Part shown: positions 50 through 15,812 of the stretch, piece by piece
Numbering within the stretch: position 1 is the first letter of the stretch
Layout of the letters: every line of letters begins with the position of its first letter
UHGV virus genome: UHGV-0086244
Length of the DNA stretch: 17,578 nt
Origin: a virus
Direction: 5' to 3' (one strand)
Program-made: the position numbers and the translations under genes
The notes under the pieces: generated by a model
The model's database searches: none
What the model was told of the DNA's origin: nothing
Seen by the model: the letters and a program-made list of their open reading frames with translations, nothing else

Positions 50-433
50 TTAATTAGAGTTATTAACAACGATATCCATCTCTAACCGGATATCTAATGC
101 CATTAACATCCCTTCAATTATGCCCTCAGCCTTCTGTAACCTTTTCCCGATATAACCATCAGAGCAGCAATGCTTACCTGCCAGTGACATGAATGTCATA
201 CCGACTACATAATAATCTACTAATAAATCGTGCAAATCGCTGTTGTTCTTTTTCAGACGGGCCATGCACCCGCAAATGATCATCGCGTCATCGTCACAAC
301 ATTGCGGGCGAGATTTTACTTTTGAAGTAATTAATCCCTTAAAACCGGCGGCAATGGACGACCAGGTCACATCTTCATGATTATTAGCCGCCCACGCTCC
401 CCAACGCTCAAGAACCATCTGAATATCACGCAT
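50..433 (-). CDS. quuD: Late-gene antiterminator Q (phage 82 / DLP12 QuuD-type), 127 aa from the ATG at 433; the longer ORF to 448 starts at TTG
   Basis: ORF translation [26 protein letters not shown]... recognised as E. coli DLP12 QuuD-like Q; GGAG about 8 nt upstream of the ATG at 433; sits last in the nin cluster as in lambdoid phages. Confidence 0.8.
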
Positions 434-518
434 CAACTTACTCCACAAAAATCAGACCAGAACGCCAATTACAAGCAAAAATCAACAAAACAGTATTAGT
501 TGATTGTTATCTCTGACT

Positions 519-659
519 TCATACTCCTGCTCCTGTCAGGGTTTTGGCGTAATTCTTCAGTATTCGGTAATCGGTCAAAACAGAACCGGGGAAACGATAT
601 AAGCGCAGACGCCCCCAGCGGTGGCGAAGACGTTCTGCCATATAAAACTCAAACATCAT
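519..659 (-). CDS. ylcG: Small YlcG-like protein (46 aa), not in the ORF track because it is below the length cutoff
   Basis: Hand translation of the minus strand: [46 protein letters not shown]; its ATG overlaps the rusA stop (ATGA); position between rusA and Q matches DLP12. Confidence 0.55.
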
Positions 660-1018
660 TCATTCCCCATTTCGGTGATGGTCAGTTCCAGCCTCCCACC
701 TTTGGTAACAGGCATCTTCACAACGCGGTAATCAACGACCTGAGCATCATCCAGCCAGAAACCTGCTTTAGTGAGTGCGTCAAAAGCGGCTTTTTGCAGA
801 TTATCCAGGTCACGGCGACGGCGATCCGGCATGTGGCACTCAATGCGGATTTTCACAGGCATAGCCAGGCCGATATCCAGCATTGCGTTTTTAATGATTC
901 GGGCGACGTTATCGCGGTATGCCTGCCCCTCTGCGCTGACGTGCGTGCGCCCGCGATTATGGCGGTAATAGCGATTATTGCTCGGAGGCCAGGGTAATGT
1001 GATGCTGTAGGTATTCAC
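656..1018 (-). CDS. rusA: Holliday junction resolvase RusA (120 aa), GTG start
   Basis: Protein [47 protein letters not shown]... matches E. coli prophage RusA from memory; start overlaps the ybcO stop (GTGA). Confidence 0.9.
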
Positions 1019-1305
1019 GCCTTAATAACCCCCTCTTTCAGCCAGATAACCTGTGTTCTCGCCATACCTTCCAGCGCGCATTCTTTTGCATATGCAGCAT
1101 CGACAAAATGTGTGCGGCGGTCGATTTCGTCGTGGCAGGCAGAACATGCAATGGTGGCAATCAGGTCTGGCGGTTTGGTACCGGTGCCGCACAATCCAGT
1201 CAGCCGGATATGTGCCAGTACAGACGTTTCAGAATTGCCATTACATACGCCAGGGATTCTTACCTGGCATTCCCGACCACGCGCTGCTTTTCTCAAATCA
1301 GCCAT
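1015..1305 (-). CDS. ybcO: YbcO-like nin-region protein (DUF1364-type putative nuclease), 96 aa from the internal ATG ([10 protein letters not shown]...)
   Basis: ORF 1015..1344 contains the YbcO-like sequence; the start at 1305 is chosen because it overlaps the ninE stop and matches the remembered 96-aa YbcO N-terminus. Confidence 0.75.
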
Positions 1306-1468
1306 GATTCCTCCTTGCTGCCAGTCGCAACCATTTTTTATCAACCAGGCTGGCGGTATATCCGAGCAGTGTTGGTATTTCGGATGGCTTCGGCTCAGGC
1401 TTACGCTTACGACGATTTGATACTCTGTAGATGTGTCCGTTCATGACACGAATAAGCGGTGTAGCCAT
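1298..1468 (-). CDS. ninE: NinE-like protein (56 aa), found by hand translation
   Basis: Minus-strand [59 protein letters not shown]; its ATG overlaps the ybcN stop (TAATG); order ybcN-ninE-ybcO-rusA as in DLP12. Confidence 0.7.
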   Translation of the reverse strand: MATPLIRVMNGHIYRVSNRRKRKPEPKPSEIPTLLGYTASLVDKKWLRLAARRNHG

Positions 1469-1923
1469 TACGCCTCCTGCTTGTCACGGAGCAGCTGGAA
1501 CTCGCAGCTCTGCGGAATAGTCAGGTGGCAGCCAATATTCACCGCCCAGGCTTCAACCTTACACAGGAAGACATACATCTCTCCGGTATCGAGGTCGGAG
1601 GTATGGCGTAACGACTGAATAGTGGTGATTTCACCGGTTATGACATCAACCAGTTCTTTGGTTTCATAACCGAGGTATGTGTGTTTGAGAGCATCTTTTA
1701 CCCATGCTGCAGTAGCGAACGATTTCCCCCTGCTTATGAGGTATTCACTGATTTCGCTGTACCACATGTGGCTGAGTGCATTCTGGGAAAGGCTGCGTTT
1801 CTCACGCCACGGTTTAAGCACCATGCGAAAGCATTTGCCTTCCTCCAGATAAGGCTGGATCTGCTGGCCGATAGCAGTGAAGTTACCACGATGCAATTTG
1901 ATGCCGTCTTGTGGGAGGTTCAC
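1468..1923 (-). CDS. ybcN: YbcN-like protein (151 aa, NinB-position gene), GTG start
   Basis: Protein [32 protein letters not shown]... recognised as E. coli DLP12 YbcN-like; GGAGGTGA RBS 5 nt upstream of the GTG. Confidence 0.8.
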
Positions 1924-1952
1924 GCTTCACCTCCGCAGAGGTCAAACGCTGG

Positions 1953-2084
1953 ATGCAAAAAATCGCAGGTGCATCTCTGCATCTGTGAAGGGAGAAGAGA
2001 GTTTGGATTGTATGTGCGCATAAACGTCCCCGTTTAGCGCAGAAGTCACCGGAGTTGTTCAGGTTCCGGTGATACAATTATGGC
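1953..2084. repeat. Copy 1 of a ~130-bp imperfect direct repeat (partner at 4126..4256)
   Basis: Hand alignment of atgcaaaaaatcgcaggtgcatctctgcatctgtgaagggag...cgtccccgtttagcgcagaagtcaccggag with the second copy shows near-identity with a few substitutions/indels; contains a stem-loop tcaccgga-N11-tccggtga. Confidence 0.75.
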
Positions 2085-2133
2085 GAATTGATGACGGAGA
2101 ATCAATTTTGCGAAAATGACACGATTGATCTAC

Positions 2134-2766
2134 TCAGGCCTTGGAAAGCTTGAGCTTACCCTTTACGTGCAGAGTGTTAATTAACCAGAAGGCCCCGAGC
2201 AAACACATACAATGCGCGCTAGTGACTAACTTACAAATACGAATGCGATTTTCTTCAAGATCAGGAGGTAGCTCTTTCATCAACGCTATAGCGTAGATTC
2301 CATCCTTGAGAATTGGCTCAACAACTTGATGCACGTAGTCACCATGGTTAATCTCTTCTAACTTTATGTTTTTAATCGATTCTGCGAGTTTATCAACCTC
2401 TTCATTTGTAATTACATATTCAATTTTATGAGCGTACTTGTTACGTATTGTGTTGAGCTCAGCCATAGCGTCTGCAAGCGAGACAGGAAGCCCTAACAGA
2501 ACTGCGGCAGACAGCTTTGACGCAAAATACTTATAACTTCTTATCGAATTGTATTTTTCAGAGCCATCAGGTCGTAAGTTTTCAATAACAACCCGAAGAA
2601 AGTCCTCATGAATTAGCATCAATTTTAATAGCGCGGCAGACTCATCCTCATAGTTAGCTATCGAGGCCATTTTATTAAGATCTAGAAAATAGCCAAAGTC
2701 ATGATCGATTTTCACGTAGTTACCCTCATCCGTTGTTGGACTTTGTTCAATTCGAGAGAATTTCAT
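2134..2766 (-). CDS. Hypothetical protein (210 aa) with an R-x4-H motif (IRNKYAH) typical of HEPN RNase domains; candidate toxin or abortive-infection effector
   Basis: Long ORF in an AT-rich cassette; AGGAGG RBS 8 nt upstream; start overlaps the stop of the upstream 58-aa ORF (ATGA); motif LNTIRNKYAHKIEY resembles the HEPN R-N-x-x-A-H signature. Confidence 0.6.
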   Translation of the reverse strand: MKFSRIEQSPTTDEGNYVKIDHDFGYFLDLNKMASIANYEDESAALLKLMLIHEDFLRVVIENLRPDGSEKYNSIRSYKYFASKLSAAVLLGLPVSLADAMAELNTIRNKYAHKIEYVITNEEVDKLAESIKNIKLEEINHGDYVHQVVEPILKDGIYAIALMKELPPDLEENRIRICKLVTSAHCMCLLGAFWLINTLHVKGKLKLSKA

Positions 2767-2939
2767 TTATCTTCCTCCTGTTTCATATATCTAGGGTCAG
2801 ATGCTTTAGGCTGGGTGATGCTATGCTCAATGGAGAAGCCGGACGCGCTCCATGTTGATTTGCCAGTTTGAGCTATCGTGACAACACATTCATTATTGTC
2901 GATGTTAACTTCGCGCAGCACTGGTAACTGTGAATTCAT
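2763..2939 (-). CDS. Small hypothetical protein (58 aa), translationally coupled to the downstream 210-aa gene; candidate antitoxin or partner
   Basis: Hand translation: MNSQLPVLREVNIDNNECVVTIAQTGKSTWSASGFSIEHSITQPKASDPRYMKQEEDK; AGGAG RBS 7 nt upstream of the ATG; stop TGA overlaps the next ATG. Confidence 0.5.
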   Translation of the reverse strand: MNSQLPVLREVNIDNNECVVTIAQTGKSTWSASGFSIEHSITQPKASDPRYMKQEEDK

Positions 2940-3101
2940 TTTCTAACTCCTGTTTAATGTTGACACCGCATTTATGCTGTCACGACACAATTACTTTCTA
3001 TCCTGCTGTGATGCTGCTGACAGCGGCATCCAATACCTTACCTTCTCAGCATTCTGCAAAATCGATGACGAGTCATGACCGGTTCGCGTAGCTCAGTGAA
3101 A

Positions 3102-3710
3102 TTACTGCAACCTTTCCTGACGGAAATATGGTAACACTCGACTCCACTTATCATCCTGCCAAGGCTGGAATTTTACATGTGCCGTTTCTCTGGCGAGGAT
3201 TGCTCGCGCTCTGTTGAGTATCTGGGGATATTCTTGCTCGATAGAAGTAAAGCGACCGGCTTCGCGGTGCTCCGCGACCTGAAGAAGTGGAGTAACGTTC
3301 TGGCAGGCAGTTAACATCACATCACTTGCTCGCCATAACCAAGCAAGTGTGCAAAGTTCGTTATCAGTGAATTGTTTTGTGATTGGGAATTGTTGAATTT
3401 CTCGATCGAGAAGATCCAGCACCCAGCGGCGGAATTCTTTGGCCACAGGAGTACGAGCAAACATGGCGATCAAATGGGCTCCGCGAAGGCTAAATACTCG
3501 AGACTCCTGCATTCCACGAGGGGTGGTCACTTTGACCACCCTTGTCATCAGATCTGTGAATTCATCTGAGTGCCGAGAGTAAATGCGCTGAACTGCTTTA
3601 TCGTCCGCATATTCCAGTGCTAAACCAACTTCAGTGGCAGTAAGCCAAATTCTGTTATTGTGGCAAATCGGGGTAAACGTCGTTTTGTGGAATGCTAATT
3701 GAGTAGTCAT
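3102..3710 (-). CDS. Bro-N / KilA-N-like DNA-binding protein (202 aa), putative antirepressor
   Basis: N-terminal pattern FTPICHNNRIWLTATEVGLALEY...RGAHLIAMFARTPVAKEFRRWV resembles the Bro-N domain consensus (I-R-x-x-x-G-x-x-W-F-x-A-x-D-V-A-x-x-L); GAGGTGA RBS upstream of the ATG at 3710. Confidence 0.55.
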   Translation of the reverse strand: MTTQLAFHKTTFTPICHNNRIWLTATEVGLALEYADDKAVQRIYSRHSDEFTDLMTRVVKVTTPRGMQESRVFSLRGAHLIAMFARTPVAKEFRRWVLDLLDREIQQFPITKQFTDNELCTLAWLWRASDVMLTACQNVTPLLQVAEHREAGRFTSIEQEYPQILNRARAILARETAHVKFQPWQDDKWSRVLPYFRQERLQ

Positions 3711-3734: not shown

Positions 3735-3767
3735 TCACCACCAACGACGCCAATCGACTGGTGGTGA
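3735..3767. promoter_or_regulatory. Inverted repeat (caccacca-N15-tggtggtg) just upstream of the Bro-N gene RBS; possible operator or 5'-UTR structure
   Basis: Read directly from the sequence: tcaccaccaacgacgccaatcgactggtggtga. Confidence 0.3.
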
Positions 3768-3865
3768 ACTGTGTAAGGTTGGCGTAACCGGCTACTCAAA
3801 CCCGGCGCTTCCGAAGAAGCCCTCACACAGCCCACCATAATTTGGGCATAGCCGTGCTTAGCGCA

Positions 3866-3888
3866 CAAAAAAACCGCTTAACGCGGTA
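3866..3888 (-). terminator. Candidate intrinsic terminator on the minus strand (5-bp GC-rich stem ACCGC/GCGGU, loop GUUAA, then U7)
   Basis: Minus-strand RNA would read accgcguuaagcgguuuuuuug; lies about 85 nt downstream of the small hydrophobic ORF 3974..4063. Confidence 0.4.
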
Positions 3889-3973
3889 TGCGTTGAGTAG
3901 TATCCCGGGACGCCAATCCCGTGTGCCGATTTTGCGGCAACGCACAGAATATAGCGCCGGATAAATCATGTCG

Positions 3974-4063: not shown

Positions 4064-4125
4064 ATCACCTTTAGCCGCCAGACGAATAGAGACTCCCAAT
4101 TCTGGCTGTCGAAGTAAAACACCGA

Positions 4126-4256
4126 ATGTAAAAAATCGTAGGTGCATTTCTGCATCTGTGAATGGAGATGAGAGTTTGGATTGTGTGTGCGCATAAACGT
4201 CCCCGTTTAGCGCAGAAGTCACCGGAGTTTTTTAGGCTCCGATGACAATATTATGG
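4126..4256. repeat. Copy 2 of the ~130-bp imperfect direct repeat (partner at 1953..2084)
   Basis: atgtaaaaaatcgtaggtgcatttctgcatctgtgaatggag...cgtccccgtttagcgcagaagtcaccggag aligns with copy 1; the stem-loop is retained with one arm substitution (gtcaccggag / ctccgatgac). Confidence 0.75.
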
Positions 4257-4341
4257 CTTTTTTATTTCTAAATTCAAAACTTGAAAATATTAAGATTCGC
4301 TTTTAAATCAACCCTAAACAACTGAAGATAACATCTGATAG

Positions 4342-5301
4342 TCAGCTAATTGCAAAGATATTAAAAATAACTTTAGGGAGTGCGAAAGATGAAATAAAAA
4401 GCACAACCATAAAAATGGCATGCTTAATAAATGATGAGCTTGTAAAAAAAGCTCCTCCCTTGCTAATCCCTGCCATAAAAACAAAGATAAAGCTAATTAA
4501 GCACGACCATATCACTAACAAAACTGAGATTGACATGCTTAAAGACATATCGCGAGAAAATACGTTTACTGAAATAGAAATGAAAGTAAAGAAAGAAGCA
4601 AATAAAGCAATGACACCCAGCATTGAGTTCCTTGCTGTAATTACTTCCGATTCAAAGCTTTTAACTTTCTCATGTATATCTTTTTCAGCATTTGATAATG
4701 TTGCATCAAATTGCTCAATCTTTGCAGTTTGCTGAGATAATGAAGACATTACCTTACCTATTTTTCTTTTAGTATCATTAATATTCTTTTTGCTCTTATT
4801 CAACTCTTGCGAAAAATTGGTTAGTTGATCATTGATATTTTTCCAGAGGATGTTATCAATATCACTTTTTGTATATTTTTTTACATTCTCTTTATTAAAA
4901 GAAATTGTAGATTCAGAATTATTATTAACAAAGTAATTAGATAAAATGGCATTAGAGACAGTATTATCCATCACCGGCACAGTTGCTTTTGAACTGTATT
5001 TTATAGCTTCATGCAACATTTCTTTTTCATTAACAAAAAGAGAGGTTTTTATTAAGTTTTGTGGTGCCGCGTCTTTGATAGATATACTTTCCCGCTCTTT
5101 ATTTGAAGCTGTTGCAGTTTTATTATCTATCTGCAAATTACTAATTTTTTGTACCCCTCCTGTATACGTAGATGTACTATTCGATACTTGTGAATTAGAA
5201 TAAAGTGAATGATGCGCAGTTCTTTTTGCCATGTCATCGTTGACTATAGCATTATTATTTGCAATTCTTTTTATATCCTTTTTATTATCATCCTTATTCA
5301 T
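4342..5301 (-). CDS. Hypothetical membrane-anchored protein (319 aa): polar Asn/Ser/Lys-rich N-terminal region with probable coiled coil, and about three C-terminal transmembrane helices
   Basis: Long ORF in a strongly AT-rich cassette; GAGGTGG RBS 5 nt upstream; C-terminal hydrophobic segments MLGVIALFASFFTFISISVNVF, ISVLLVIWSCLISFIFVFMAGI and AIFMVVLFISSFALPKVIF. Confidence 0.65.
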   Translation of the reverse strand: MNKDDNKKDIKRIANNNAIVNDDMAKRTAHHSLYSNSQVSNSTSTYTGGVQKISNLQIDNKTATASNKERESISIKDAAPQNLIKTSLFVNEKEMLHEAIKYSSKATVPVMDNTVSNAILSNYFVNNNSESTISFNKENVKKYTKSDIDNILWKNINDQLTNFSQELNKSKKNINDTKRKIGKVMSSLSQQTAKIEQFDATLSNAEKDIHEKVKSFESEVITARNSMLGVIALFASFFTFISISVNVFSRDMSLSMSISVLLVIWSCLISFIFVFMAGISKGGAFFTSSSFIKHAIFMVVLFISSFALPKVIFNIFAIS

Positions 5302-5315
5302 TCAGCCACCTCACA

Positions 5316-5981
5316 TTACTGAATTTCATTCACTTTACTTAAAAAGGCTTTTTTTGTTTTTTCTGCGGTATATTTATCTTTAAATATAAAACTCTCGATT
5401 GTATTCACATCGATCTGTTTCACTAGCATTGGTTGTTCTCTGACAAGATCATATCCTGACATAATCGACAAATGACAATTAAATATGGACTGCTCAAACT
5501 CGAATTTTTTATTATACATTAAATTAATATCTTCAATTATTTCGCTATCATTCTGCATGTTGTTACTAAGATAGTTTTTAACAATCTCTTTGTTTGGGTT
5601 GTTGTTTAATTCCGCCTTAACGGCCACCAAGCCTATTCTGATAATATCCTTATTGAGTTCTTTATGGATATCAACCACACTATCGAAAACTTCTTGAAAC
5701 AAATGTAAGTCTACCTCTTGCTCAGAATCCATACGTTCAAAAAACAAATCACATCTCTGCAGTGAGCATTGAACTCTAAATTTATTATCTATAGAAAACA
5801 ATTGGAGACGAGGAATCTCTGGTGGGGTATCCATAGGTAAAACGCCCAACATCATATTGTTTGTTAATTCAATACCTGCCTTCTTTTTAAAAGTTTGCCT
5901 AATAAAATACGACATTCCATCGAAATCGACAGTCGTTGATGAATCGTAAAAAAATACCATTTGTAACTGTATGATTTTCAT
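5316..5981 (-). CDS. Hypothetical soluble protein (221 aa), first gene of an AT-rich two-gene cassette; start codon uncertain
   Basis: Long ORF 14 nt upstream of the 319-aa gene on the same strand; no recognisable motif; AT-rich codon usage unlike the flanking lambda genes. Confidence 0.55.
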   Translation of the reverse strand: MKIIQLQMVFFYDSSTTVDFDGMSYFIRQTFKKKAGIELTNNMMLGVLPMDTPPEIPRLQLFSIDNKFRVQCSLQRCDLFFERMDSEQEVDLHLFQEVFDSVVDIHKELNKDIIRIGLVAVKAELNNNPNKEIVKNYLSNNMQNDSEIIEDINLMYNKKFEFEQSIFNCHLSIMSGYDLVREQPMLVKQIDVNTIESFIFKDKYTAEKTKKAFLSKVNEIQ

Positions 5982-6133: not shown

Positions 6134-6856
6134 TTATTTCGAAATCTTTTTATATAATGCTTTTCCCCCTTTCAGCCCAAACTTAGCTTTGATTTCTGCG
6201 ATCTTCGCCAGAGCCTGTGCACGATTTAGAGGTCTACCGCCCATGACAGGAAGTTGTTTTACTGGTTCAGGTATAGCCTCACCACGGTTAATTCGTGCGG
6301 TCATACAGGACAGTTCATCGGCAGCCTTGCGCCGTAATTCCGCGTCAGTCAACGCATTGGCCCGCATGTTCTGATACAGGTTGGTAACCAGCCAGTAGTG
6401 CGCGTTTGATTTCCACGGATAAGACTCTGCATCCGGATACAGCCCACGCTTCCGGCAATACTCGTAAACCATATCAACCAGCTCGCTGGCGTTTGGCAGC
6501 CCGGCGGTAACGGATGCTTCTTCCCGGCACCAGGCAACAAACTGCCCGGGTGATGGCAGGAATGGTCGATTCTGCCGACGGGCTACGCGCATTCCTGCGT
6601 TAACCTGTTCCATTGTGGTGATCCCGTTTTCCCGGAAAGCCAGAACCCACTGGCGGCGGATTTCGTTCAGTTCATTCTGGTCACGGTTAGCCAGGCTCGC
6701 CGGGAAAGTTGCCAGTAACTGCCTGAACACACCGTTGATGATCTGCGCTACCTGCTGTACCTGTGGCTTTTCGTCGTACTGTTCCGGCATGTTGTTGGCG
6801 ATCCGGCGCATCTGCTCACAGTCAAAGTTAACCATTTGTGCGGCGATGTTTTTCAT
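6134..6856 (-). CDS. P: Replication protein P (DnaB helicase loader), lambda-type with a divergent C-terminal tail
   Basis: Protein MKNIAAQMVNFDCEQMRRIANNMPEQYDEKPQVQQVAQIINGVF... matches lambda P from memory until about the last 10 residues; start overlaps the O stop (ATGA). Confidence 0.95.
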   Translation of the reverse strand: MKNIAAQMVNFDCEQMRRIANNMPEQYDEKPQVQQVAQIINGVFRQLLATFPASLANRDQNELNEIRRQWVLAFRENGITTMEQVNAGMRVARRQNRPFLPSPGQFVAWCREEASVTAGLPNASELVDMVYEYCRKRGLYPDAESYPWKSNAHYWLVTNLYQNMRANALTDAELRRKAADELSCMTARINRGEAIPEPVKQLPVMGGRPLNRAQALAKIAEIKAKFGLKGGKALYKKISK

Positions 6857-9592: not shown

Positions 9593-10615
9593 ATGAAAGA
9601 TAACAGACAAAAAGTCGTTCATTATAAAAAAGCAGTAATCCCACACAGCAAATCATCATTACAAAACATACTACTTAGTATTATAGGTGAGGGCGGCGTT
9701 GCAGAAAAAGTACTTAGTAGACAAGAAAAAATAACACCTTCAGATGAAAATTCGGGGTATCGTTTCTTAAATAAAAGCGACACATACAAAACTATACTTT
9801 TTGGGCAACTGGTTTTATTTGAAAAAGACAAAAGCCAGTCTCTATTAGAGCTTAGTGATAATGTTAAATTTTATGACATTAACTCCATCACGTCTAATGA
9901 TATAATTATTGATGGAGATAAACGTAGTGACAAAAAAAGAGAGTTTGTAGATTCAATTTTATATTTTGGTGTACTAAACAACCATGTCATGATCGTTCAA
10001 TCCACATCGCTTCGAGCAAGGGAGCTTGAGGCGCATTTGAATTGGCTAATTAATACATTCACAGATGAAAAAGAATCTGTGTTAATGCTTCAAGATAAGC
10101 CATCCGAAGAAACGATGAAAAAAATGGAGAAAGCACCAGCCAAGAGCATAAAAATTGGTGGATTACCCATTACTTCAGAAGTTAAAAATTCAGAGAACCA
10201 AACACCCTCCTTTTCAAATGGTTCGGTGAAGACAATAAAATACCGCCCAATAGGGAAAGGAGGTGCGCTACTAAAAGCATTTTTTGGCGATAACTGGGCA
10301 AATGATATAAACATTAAAGATTCATTAGATGAGGCCAATTTACAAGTAAGCCTCGAGATTACATACTTCAGAAAAACAAATGATAGCGGTCAAGCTGTTA
10401 TAGACAGTATTGCTACCTCACTACGACATCTAGATGAGGATGATATTAGCATCAAACTTCAAGGCGGTGGGGAAATAACGGGAAAAGAGATAAAATTATC
10501 CGGAAAAATTAGCGTTGAACATAACAATGGCATTATTGATGAAAATGATTTATTCTTAAAAATGCATAAGTGGCTGTTCTCAAAACTTGATGCCGGAGAA
10601 TTGGTTGCAAAATAA
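9593..10615 (+). CDS. Hypothetical soluble protein (340 aa) occupying the rexA position; candidate sensor of a RexAB-like exclusion module
   Basis: Long ORF immediately downstream of cI on the same strand, in an AT-rich block; no recognisable similarity to lambda RexA from memory. Confidence 0.6.
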   Translation: MKDNRQKVVHYKKAVIPHSKSSLQNILLSIIGEGGVAEKVLSRQEKITPSDENSGYRFLNKSDTYKTILFGQLVLFEKDKSQSLLELSDNVKFYDINSITSNDIIIDGDKRSDKKREFVDSILYFGVLNNHVMIVQSTSLRARELEAHLNWLINTFTDEKESVLMLQDKPSEETMKKMEKAPAKSIKIGGLPITSEVKNSENQTPSFSNGSVKTIKYRPIGKGGALLKAFFGDNWANDINIKDSLDEANLQVSLEITYFRKTNDSGQAVIDSIATSLRHLDEDDISIKLQGGGEITGKEIKLSGKISVEHNNGIIDENDLFLKMHKWLFSKLDAGELVAK

Positions 10616-10636
10616 CCTACCAAAAGGAGGGCGATA

Positions 10637-11143
10637 ATGAAATCGAACATCATCCACCTTATTGGTATGTTGGTCTTCTATTTTGCTGGTTACTTTTTGT
10701 TCAAGTCAGCATTGGGCTATATTACACCGGGTGTTGTCCTAACAGCTCCGTGGGCTGTGGTTGGACTCATGCAATTGCCATTATCATATTGTATACAAGC
10801 CATTTTTAAGGCAAATGAGGCCAATGACCACTCGTCTTTAACCCCTAGTGAGGTTAGGCGATTAGTGCCAATAGTCAAATCCAAGAGACTGAAATTGGTT
10901 TTATTATTAGCTTTCTATGTATTTTCAACTTTGTTTGTAATCTTGGGGTTAATAGCAAGCACAAATGATCAAGCCCTACTCTTCAGGGTCTTAAAAATTT
11001 CAGGTGGATTACTCTTTATTTCTCTCTATACCAGTGTATTCGTTCATAAAATAATGGTTGAGCTTCAAGAGTTTAAAGCGTTATTAAACCGAAGAGAATC
11101 AGAGAAGAAGGAAAGAGAGTCACTCCTTGATAGATTAAAATGA
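10637..11143 (+). CDS. Hypothetical 4-TM membrane protein (168 aa) occupying the rexB position; candidate membrane effector
   Basis: AGGAGG RBS 7 nt upstream; four hydrophobic segments (IIHLIGMLVFYFAGYFLF, VVLTAPWAVVGLMQLPL, LVLLLAFYVFSTLFVILGLIA, LLFISLYTSVFV); charged C-terminal tail; followed by a strong terminator. Confidence 0.65.
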   Translation: MKSNIIHLIGMLVFYFAGYFLFKSALGYITPGVVLTAPWAVVGLMQLPLSYCIQAIFKANEANDHSSLTPSEVRRLVPIVKSKRLKLVLLLAFYVFSTLFVILGLIASTNDQALLFRVLKISGGLLFISLYTSVFVHKIMVELQEFKALLNRRESEKKERESLLDRLK

Positions 11144-15209: not shown

Positions 15210-15812
15210 TCATTCAGTATCATCACGCGCGGTCTGTGCATATGTCACTACCGCACCTAATATATTAATTTTCTTTTCAACATAGATAATATTATCGTAC
15301 TCATAATTGCCATACGGATAGCAAATGCGAATATTCTCATGTAGATCGGGGTCATCCACCTCAGCTCCAGAACAACTTTTTGAACTACCGGAAGTATACC
15401 GATACGGTGCAACATAAGACGATGTCTCTCCAGGCAAAAAATAAGTTAGTGTCGTAAGGGGTATAATCAGAAAAAATCCAGCAAATATGCACATCCCTGC
15501 ATAAACCTTAAGGTATGCTGACAGACTCTTCCAGCCTCTTTGTTTTACTATCCCCTTCTTAACCCAAAACAGAGATAACAGAAAAGCTATTCCCATGCTA
15601 AACAGAATGTAATAGTGGGATATACTCTGATTAAGAAACGTGACCCTGTAGATATCTGCCCGCCACCAGAAGAAAAGGAAAATAAAGATCAGCCCTGAAA
15701 CTGTCATGCAAATCAAATAAGGATACGAATCTTTTTTCATGTTTAGCGCCCATAAAATTTTTCCTGACCCGGACAAATTTACCATCCATTTTTTGCGCAG
15801 AAAATAGCTCAT
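15210..15812 (-). CDS. Hypothetical inner-membrane protein (200 aa, about three TM helices plus a roughly 75-aa soluble C-terminal domain); moron in the ea22/ea8.5 position
   Basis: AT-rich ORF antisense to the pL operon; hydrophobic segments YLICMTVSGLIFIFLFFWW, YYILFSMGIAFLLSLFWV and VYAGMCIFAGFFLIIPLTTLTYFL; start codon uncertain. Confidence 0.6.
   Translation of the reverse strand: MSYFLRKKWMVNLSGSGKILWALNMKKDSYPYLICMTVSGLIFIFLFFWWRADIYRVTFLNQSISHYYILFSMGIAFLLSLFWVKKGIVKQRGWKSLSAYLKVYAGMCIFAGFFLIIPLTTLTYFLPGETSSYVAPYRYTSGSSKSCSGAEVDDPDLHENIRICYPYGNYEYDNIIYVEKKINILGAVVTYAQTARDDTE

Follow-up and report, generated by a model that had tools for sequence, protein, structure and literature searches.

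A HepS-family gene in the accessory region of an Escherichia coli lambdoid prophage, preceded by a chimeric reading frame and not by an antitoxin gene

The DNA analyzed here (the window) comprises the 17,578 nucleotides of the virus genome UHGV-0086244 and represents the early region of an Escherichia coli lambdoid prophage, with int, exo, bet, cI, cro, O, P, ninB/ybcN, ninE, ybcO, rusA and Q. On its minus strand, a gene for a protein of 210 residues (positions 2134–2766) follows an open reading frame (ORF) of 58 residues (2763–2939). An earlier note on this DNA had proposed that the two form a translationally coupled toxin–antitoxin or abortive-infection pair with a HEPN ribonuclease as its larger component. 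The larger gene is a new member of the family of the Salmonella prophage protein HepS, and the two ORFs are not a new toxin–antitoxin pair. The homology evidence makes it very probable that the 210-residue protein is a "solo" HEPN abortive-infection nuclease, encoded as an accessory gene of the prophage and needing no antitoxin.

The arrangement that the note described is present in the sequence. Both ORFs lie at these coordinates, and the plus-strand TCAT at 2763–2766 is a coding-strand ATGA in which the stop codon of the 58-residue ORF overlaps the start codon of the hepS-like gene. The 58-residue ORF has a good ribosome-binding site, AGGAG (2951–2947), located 7 nucleotides 5' of its ATG, and the hepS-like gene has a Shine–Dalgarno sequence of its own, AGGAGG (2779–2774), at the same distance from its start. 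The AT-rich cassette that the note placed between the nin genes and P was likewise found, with a fraction of guanine plus cytosine (GC) of 0.39–0.41 (2100–3000) versus about 0.50 for the nin genes to its left, and with ninB/ybcN (1468–1923) and P (6134–6856) on its two sides.

The 210-residue protein aligns to HepS of Salmonella (homologue P0015) over its whole length, with 50% identity, 100% coverage and an E-value of 7e-73 in BLASTP. P0015 agrees, as aligned, with the sequence of PDB chain 9oij_A (HepS). A search of the PDB sequences with the family profile retrieved the entries 9OIJ ("HepS"; E 6.6e-105) and 9OIK ("HepS-H105A"; E 2.2e-103), again over the whole length, and no further significant match. 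An AlphaFold2 model built from an alignment of 11 sequences was of low confidence (predicted local distance difference test score, 51.6) and served solely for confirmation with Foldseek; its best match was 9oij_B, with TM scores of 0.77/0.86 and a root mean square deviation of 2.8 Å, and HepS chains were the sole significant matches. Because the structure of a 50%-identical homologue has been solved, a better model is unnecessary. Profile, BLASTP and Foldseek searches thus all reach HepS, which bears out the note's assignment of a HEPN ribonuclease-type protein with RNKYAH as its catalytic Rx4H motif, and the structure prediction, low in confidence as it is, superposes on a HEPN protein. The link to abortive infection stands as well, the nearest characterized relative being a defence protein from the accessory region of a lambdoid prophage.

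Searches of general family collections were less informative. The note had pointed to known HEPN families, and residues 75–134 do match DUF4145 (PF13643; E 0.011, 16.3 bits) and HEPN_Swt1 (PF18731; E 0.047, 14.4 bits) in Pfam, but both scores lie below the gathering cutoffs of 23.1 and 27.5 bits, so that the matches were obtained and membership was not. HepS itself gives the same sub-threshold matches. Neither ORF has a match in PADLOC (2023), a negative that says little because HepS itself is merely marginal there, and an NCBIfam search of both ORFs returned nothing meaningful. The protein, at 210 residues (below 250), is standalone, with no additional domain found in the Pfam, NCBIfam or PADLOC searches, and it falls in PHROG 5712, a family of unknown function. 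The HepS family is small: 16 clusters at 90% identity were found among 5.8 billion proteins, all from Enterobacteriaceae, and 45 clusters at E ≤ 1e-3 came from an exhaustive search with HMMER over 1.84 billion representatives. The E. coli accessions are WP_167823606.1 and WP_042022526.1. A tblastn search of 50,697 phage genomes was negative; members of the family turn up in prophages and not in deposited phage records.

Residues 104–117 of the protein, LNTIRNKYAHKIEY, contain the motif R108-N-K-Y-A-H113 (codons at 2428–2445, minus strand), which corresponds to the HEPN Rx4H motif of HepS (R100–H105). A bare R-x4-H is weak evidence alone, since 21% of shuffled versions of the 210-residue protein have one and so do five further window proteins. 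By comparison, RNxxAH occurs in 0.1% of the shuffles and in no other protein of the window, and R108, N109 and H113 are invariant in 11/11 aligned homologues. The gene is under purifying selection, with ratios of non-synonymous to synonymous substitution rates (dN/dS) of 0.11 against the copy of E. coli 95-3322 and 0.09 against the homologue P0004. It also shares its genomic niche with hepS, the accessory region of lambdoid prophages between the replication gene P and the nin/Q genes.

HepS (STM14_3211) is encoded by prophage Gifsy-1 of Salmonella Typhimurium (PDB 9OIJ and 9OIK; Sargen et al., Nature 2026, PMC13043305), and the family was first described in January 2026 as a "HEPN solo", that is, a one-protein abortive-infection system (PMC13043305). 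It is constitutive in lysogens, non-toxic upon overexpression and lacks a conserved partner gene; it protects lysogens from external phages and helps Gifsy-1 to compete with another prophage of the same cell (PMC13043305). At rest, HepS is a tetramer without activity, its R100 and H105 buried and about 17 Å apart. The trigger is a stretch of 32 residues from J, the tail-tip protein of siphoviruses (residues 902–933 in lambda, with F924 critical); one such peptide binds each protomer, stitches the disordered N- and C-termini of HepS into a composite beta-sheet and contacts S13, D15, S202 and T203 (PMC13043305). A relay change at Y20/I107 then opens two HEPN active sites, and the activated enzyme cuts the anticodon loops of tRNA-Thr(GGT) and of secondary targets (PMC13043305). 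R100 and H105 are needed for RNA cleavage in a cell-free assay, and a chromosomal H105A mutation abolishes defence (PMC13043305). Evasion works through a J variant, and Gifsy phages carry the silent I924 (PMC13043305). Homologues of 35–50% identity without conserved partners had already been noted in prophages of Enterobacteriaceae by the authors, whose sequence set numbered 393 (PMC13043305).

We mapped the residues of HepS onto the window protein with the family alignment of 11 homologues and the BLASTP alignment, taking the residue roles from PMC13043305. The catalytic residues R100, N101 and H105, the second of which also contacts the tRNA, correspond to R108, N109 and H113. The allosteric relay residues I107 and Y20 correspond to I115 and Y26, the tRNA-contacting K71 to K79, L83 of the tetramer interface to L91, and the trigger-contacting D15 to D21; all of these are conserved and invariant in the family. 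F66 of the tetramer interface is conservatively changed to Y72. We read the alignment as a catalytic engine and an allosteric relay that have been kept, combined with sensor tails that have diverged.

The mechanism that we propose is modelled by homology on that of Gifsy-1 HepS. The 210-residue protein would be made as an inactive tetramer in which R108 and H113 of paired protomers are kept apart. Late in the growth of a siphovirus, whether infecting or induced, a structural protein that has just been synthesized (J in the case of HepS) would bind the flexible N- and C-terminal tails, and Y26 and I115 would relay the binding so that two composite HEPN active sites open. Cleavage would then hit the anticodon loops of some tRNAs (in HepS, those of tRNA-Thr and others), and the late protein synthesis and particle assembly of the phage would collapse. 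By analogy with HepS, the targets would be expected among tRNA-Thr, tRNA-Ile and tRNA-Ser with T at position 3 of the anticodon. No antitoxin would be required, and the 58-residue remnant keeps the stretch that holds the ribosome-binding site of the hepS-like gene and the ATGA junction.

Several observations weigh against this reading, or against its details. K78, a tetramer-interface residue that is essential in HepS, is replaced by S86. Three of the four residues that hydrogen-bond the trigger in HepS are changed, S13 to K19, S202 to K209 and T203 to A210; in addition, the N-terminal sensor strand carries a 6-residue insertion (residues 11–16, which vary within the clade), and the protein stops 7 residues short of the end of HepS. 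This divergence bears on the identity of the trigger and not on fold membership. Target tRNAs and trigger are not simply transferable from HepS at 50% identity. A promoter scan gave no convincing sigma-70 site directly upstream of the 58-residue ORF (2940–3101), which makes expression of the gene in the lysogen uncertain. In every examined locus of the clade with hepS-like genes of 75–88% identity, moreover, the coupled upstream gene is the same, a homologue of the theta subunit of DNA polymerase III. The remaining point concerns protein J. Because the window contains no tail genes, and complete E. coli genomes cover at most 78% of it, J was read from five E. coli genomes that carry the same cassette at 98–99.9% identity (20KM0223N, SCU-113, A2, JCKP02 and 95-3322). 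The J protein of the same prophage has a phenylalanine at the position of lambda F924 in 5/5 of these genomes, and its residues 902–933 are identical to those of lambda in four of the five. The silent I924 was thus found in none of the E. coli prophages examined.

With the exact lambda trigger peptide in the resident prophage, self-abortion is expected under the published HepS model. This unexpected point may have several explanations: the trigger may be a different one, which fits the diverged tails; another tolerance mechanism may operate; the hepS-like gene may not be co-expressed with J; or the prophages may restrict themselves. Some of these prophages are damaged, that of A2 by a frameshift in the tape-measure gene and those of 95-3322 and S1-KEN-03-A by a split capsid gene, and no pseudogenes were found in the stretches read of the late regions of 20KM0223N and SCU-113. 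In the Enterobacter and Klebsiella prophages, J lies more than 20 kb from the hepS-like gene. The combination of diverged sensor tails and a resident lambda-type peptide implies that the trigger of the E. coli clade, or the tolerance of its own gene, may differ from that of Gifsy-1 HepS. At somewhat below even odds, we suggest that the sensor tails of the E. coli/Enterobacter clade have been re-tuned and are not fired by the lambda-type J peptide of their own prophage, the protein sensing another phage protein or being silenced during self-induction by a mechanism unseen in Gifsy-1. Candidates for such silencing are the coupled, theta-derived upstream product and transcriptional gating by the adjacent isrK/C4–antirepressor module. 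If the tails are indeed re-tuned, the HepS scaffold would be a platform with swappable sensors, and prophage self-tolerance would have more than one solution.

The capsid genes of the last two damaged prophages were also noted in their own right. In these two strains, E. coli 95-3322 (L015 1349–7819) and S1-KEN-03-A (L017 4703–9889), both of which carry the cassette, a satellite-like insertion splits the major capsid gene of the prophage. It encodes an Icd-like protein, a primase, a single-stranded DNA-binding protein and a small terminase, along with capsid and decoration proteins of its own. The insertion looks like a phage-inducible island inside the head gene of its helper prophage.

The 58-residue ORF is chimeric, with fragments of two unrelated genes joined in it. 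A homologue search with it returned one cluster, itself, among 5.8e9 proteins, and DNA alignment shows its mosaic origin. The first ~32 codons (2855–2939, minus strand) derive from an unrelated small nin-region ORF of 64/73 residues; this segment has 79% DNA identity to the start of the small ORF in the nin region of E. coli SF-468 (L010 3901–4122) and shares 22/32 residues with it, at a dN/dS of 0.22. The last ~26 codons (2763–2854, minus strand), which include the AGGAGG of the hepS-like gene (2774–2779), are the tail of a phage gene for the theta subunit (HolE/Hot-like). They are near-identical to the 3' end of the frameshifted theta pseudogene that precedes the hepS-like gene in E. coli 95-3322, and the last ~17 residues match the C-terminus of the intact 82-residue theta homologues of the Enterobacter loci, which end in ...LPKASDPRYLKQEEGK where the 58-residue ORF ends in ...QPKASDPRYMKQEEDK. 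The two parts meet at a shared CATGGAG microhomology. By these alignments, the ORF is a recombination by-product in which most of the phage theta-subunit gene has been replaced. It is probably translated. The theta tail carries the Shine–Dalgarno sequence and start codon of the hepS-like gene, which is a sufficient explanation for its being kept.

The upstream gene varies among the relatives of the hepS-like gene. In the Enterobacter and related loci it is the intact, ATGA-coupled 82-residue theta homologue (Pfam E 1.8e-32), and in E. coli 95-3322 it is annotated as a frameshifted "DNA polymerase III subunit theta". Neither the Salmonella hepS locus nor the island that carries the homologue P0014 has a theta gene or a small coupled ORF. 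An intact hepS-like gene is present without an intact theta gene in 18 E. coli genomes, which amount to a natural knock-out showing that the nuclease gene is tolerated without its theta neighbour. As regards P0014 itself, this 219-residue homologue (~53% identical) lies on a metagenome contig (L020 1329–5386), where its neighbours are a tyrosine integrase and a transposase of the IS3 type, and not in a nin region, so the hepS-like gene also travels on non-lambdoid islands.

These loci bear directly on the other explanations of the gene. The note had taken the ATGA overlap for the classic arrangement of a toxin–antitoxin or sensor–effector pair, in which the 58-residue protein would neutralize or regulate the HEPN toxin and translational coupling would set their ratio. 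The overlap and the good ribosome-binding sites of both ORFs speak for such a pair, as does the fact that some HEPN toxins pair with small antitoxins, HEPN–MNT being an example. The overlap loses its weight in the context of this prophage, where at least six further neighbouring pairs of the window overlap by 4 nucleotides (ylcG/rusA, rusA/ybcO, 33-residue ORF/ybcN, P/O, O/ydaT-like and bet/exo); ATGA coupling is usual between its adjoining genes, in keeping with phage gene packing, and is no toxin–antitoxin signature. The would-be antitoxin is the unique two-gene chimera described above and lacks the conservation of a cognate partner, being absent from the Salmonella, Enterobacter and other homologous loci. 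In the relatives its place is taken by theta, by frameshifted theta or by nothing. Two indirect hints concern toxicity in the absence of an antitoxin: in E. coli 95-3322 the hepS-like gene that follows the frameshifted theta gene is intact and there is no 58-residue ORF, and HepS is non-toxic alone and without a conserved partner (PMC13043305). On these grounds, the antitoxin role of the 58-residue ORF is rejected, and the proposal of a two-gene toxin–antitoxin or sensor–effector pair is left with hardly any probability.

A true partner might instead be the phage theta protein, acting as a modulator or immunity factor that confers tolerance of the prophage's own F924 J, in which case the window would hold a decayed version of a theta–HepS module whose control has been lost or taken over by the chimeric peptide. 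The intact theta gene is always coupled in the 75–88% clade despite variable genes further upstream, its tail is the part kept in both E. coli variants, and a resident J with the triggering F924 calls for some mechanism of self-tolerance. The loci of this clade are closely related, however, so the linkage may just reflect recent common descent; retention of the tail is explained by the translation signals of the hepS-like gene that it holds; and homologues of theta often occur in phages as accessory genes by themselves, with PHROG families of their own. Given also that Salmonella HepS and P0014 have no theta neighbour and that the E. coli copies remain intact and under purifying selection without an intact theta gene, we consider a theta partnership unlikely. 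Comparably improbable is a role for the benefit of the phage itself. In that case the nuclease would be produced from the early-right operon alone, while its own prophage grows lytically, and would reshape the tRNA pool or keep out rival prophages induced at the same time, and would not serve as a lysogen-expressed defence. The gene is indeed co-oriented with the P–nin–Q delayed-early operon, no strong promoter of its own was found directly upstream, and HepS gave Gifsy-1 its edge over a co-resident prophage (PMC13043305). Against this stand the constitutive expression of HepS in lysogens and its protection against external phages (PMC13043305), as well as a lysogen-active route offered by the isrK promoter-like site (3977–3948) and the lack of a terminator-like site between the antirepressor gene and the hepS-like gene. 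Such a role overlaps the defence model rather than excluding it. The preferred reading therefore remains that of a solo HEPN nuclease of the HepS family.

The route of expression just mentioned belongs to the module directly upstream, on the same strand. An antirepressor-like gene (3102–3710, minus strand; Pfam Bro-N E 5.6e-10 and P22_AR_C E 2.4e-16; PHROG anti-repressor families) is preceded by a C4-type antisense RNA (3757–3842, minus strand; Rfam RF01695, 74.8 bits) and by an isrK small RNA with a terminator-like hairpin (3867–3939, minus strand; Rfam RF01394, 58.7 bits), both at gathering level and taken as regulators of the antirepressor. The best promoter-like site that the scan found in the region, TTGACG-18-TATATT (3977–3948, minus strand), lies just before isrK. 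In Gifsy-1, read-through transcripts that start at the isrK promoter run on into anrP, the antirepressor gene further downstream (PMC4825925). A scan found no terminator-like site between the antirepressor gene and the hepS-like gene of the window, which makes read-through from the isrK promoter-like site a possible route of expression in the lysogen; by analogy, such transcription could extend into the hepS-like gene.

The 2-kb module from isrK through the antirepressor gene and the 58-residue ORF to the hepS-like gene is bracketed by a direct repeat of 147 nucleotides, found by repeat search, whose two copies (1938–2084, on the right in gene order, and 4111–4257) are 88% identical. Each copy spans a small ORF of the 33-residue type and comes after a promoter-like site. 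Positions 2000–2117 of the window (118 bases, overlapping the copy at 1938–2084) are 85–86% identical in most of the 2767 E. coli records that match any part of 2000–3100. The start of this copy thus has counterparts in thousands of E. coli prophages, which points to a conserved sequence at the module boundary that serves cassette exchange. A tRNA scan of the window found none.

The interval between ninB/ybcN and P holds, besides the isrK/C4–antirepressor module, another AT-rich two-gene cassette. This cassette (4342–5981, minus strand; GC 0.26–0.34) lies between P and the isrK module and encodes a 221-residue protein and a 319-residue protein with a coiled coil and C-terminal transmembrane segments (PHROGs 24110 and 25335, of unknown function). 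Neither has a PADLOC or Pfam assignment, and the two are a candidate accessory or defence pair. Elsewhere in the window, a 340-residue ORF and a 168-residue multi-pass membrane ORF (9593–11143, plus strand; PHROGs 3482 and 16807, of unknown function) occupy the rexA/rexB position of lambda, just downstream of the cI-like repressor gene; they have no PADLOC match and may be a RexAB-like exclusion pair of an unrecognized family. A 200-residue predicted membrane protein without a PADLOC match is encoded near xis/int (15210–15812, minus strand), opposite to the surrounding early-left genes. Outside the window, the Enterobacter prophages with theta and hepS-like genes (L005/L006 9909–10592) encode a separate 227-residue DUF4145 (HEPN-type) protein just past the lysis genes, so that one prophage carries two different HEPN accessory proteins.

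The assignment gives a probable function and mechanism to a gene that is annotated as "hypothetical protein" in prophages of E. coli, Enterobacter, Klebsiella and Citrobacter, removes a false toxin–antitoxin candidate and adds lambdoid prophages of E. coli, at the DLP12/argU locus, to the range of HepS. The remaining interest lies in the diverged sensor tails that coexist with a self-encoded lambda-type peptide, and in the clade-specific coupling to theta. The published model of self-tolerance could be tested simply in these prophages, since they encode both a HepS homologue and, unaltered, the lambda J peptide to which Salmonella HepS responds. If the E. coli protein ignores the lambda peptide, a comparison of the sensor tails would map the specificity determinants of an immune nuclease that senses structural proteins.

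Among known systems, HepS is the closest. The two proteins share 50% identity over their full length, a size of 210 residues, the Rx4H motif and the residues of the relay (Y20/I107) and of tRNA contact (N101/K71), and both are standalone proteins encoded in the same slot between the replication and nin/Q genes of a lambdoid prophage. They differ in that hepS has its own AT-rich intergenic promoter region, whereas the window gene is fused behind the remnant of a theta gene, and in that the J protein of Gifsy phages carries the silent I924 where that of the cassette-bearing E. coli prophages carries F924. The isrK/C4/antirepressor module of the window resembles the isrK–orf45–anrP module of Gifsy-1, here adjoining the hepS-like gene. 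The likeness to the Pfam families DUF4145, HEPN_Swt1 and Abi_2/AbiD-F (PF07751) is a weak alignment of the helical HEPN core around the Rx4-6H motif; the protein scores below all of their gathering thresholds and is no member by Pfam criteria. HEPN toxin–antitoxin systems and the anticodon nucleases PrrC/RloC have in common with it a HEPN-type or anticodon-directed RNA cleavage that serves abortive infection. HEPN–MNT, RnlA–RnlB/LsoA–LsoB and PrrC/RloC depend on a conserved partner of their own that acts as antitoxin or silencer (MNT, RnlB, EcoprrI), whereas the hepS-like locus is without one. Another prophage-encoded HEPN effector is similarly triggered by a tail structural protein, but the HepS paper describes it as unrelated, as a non-specific RNase with another tail trigger and as subject to repression by its own prophage.

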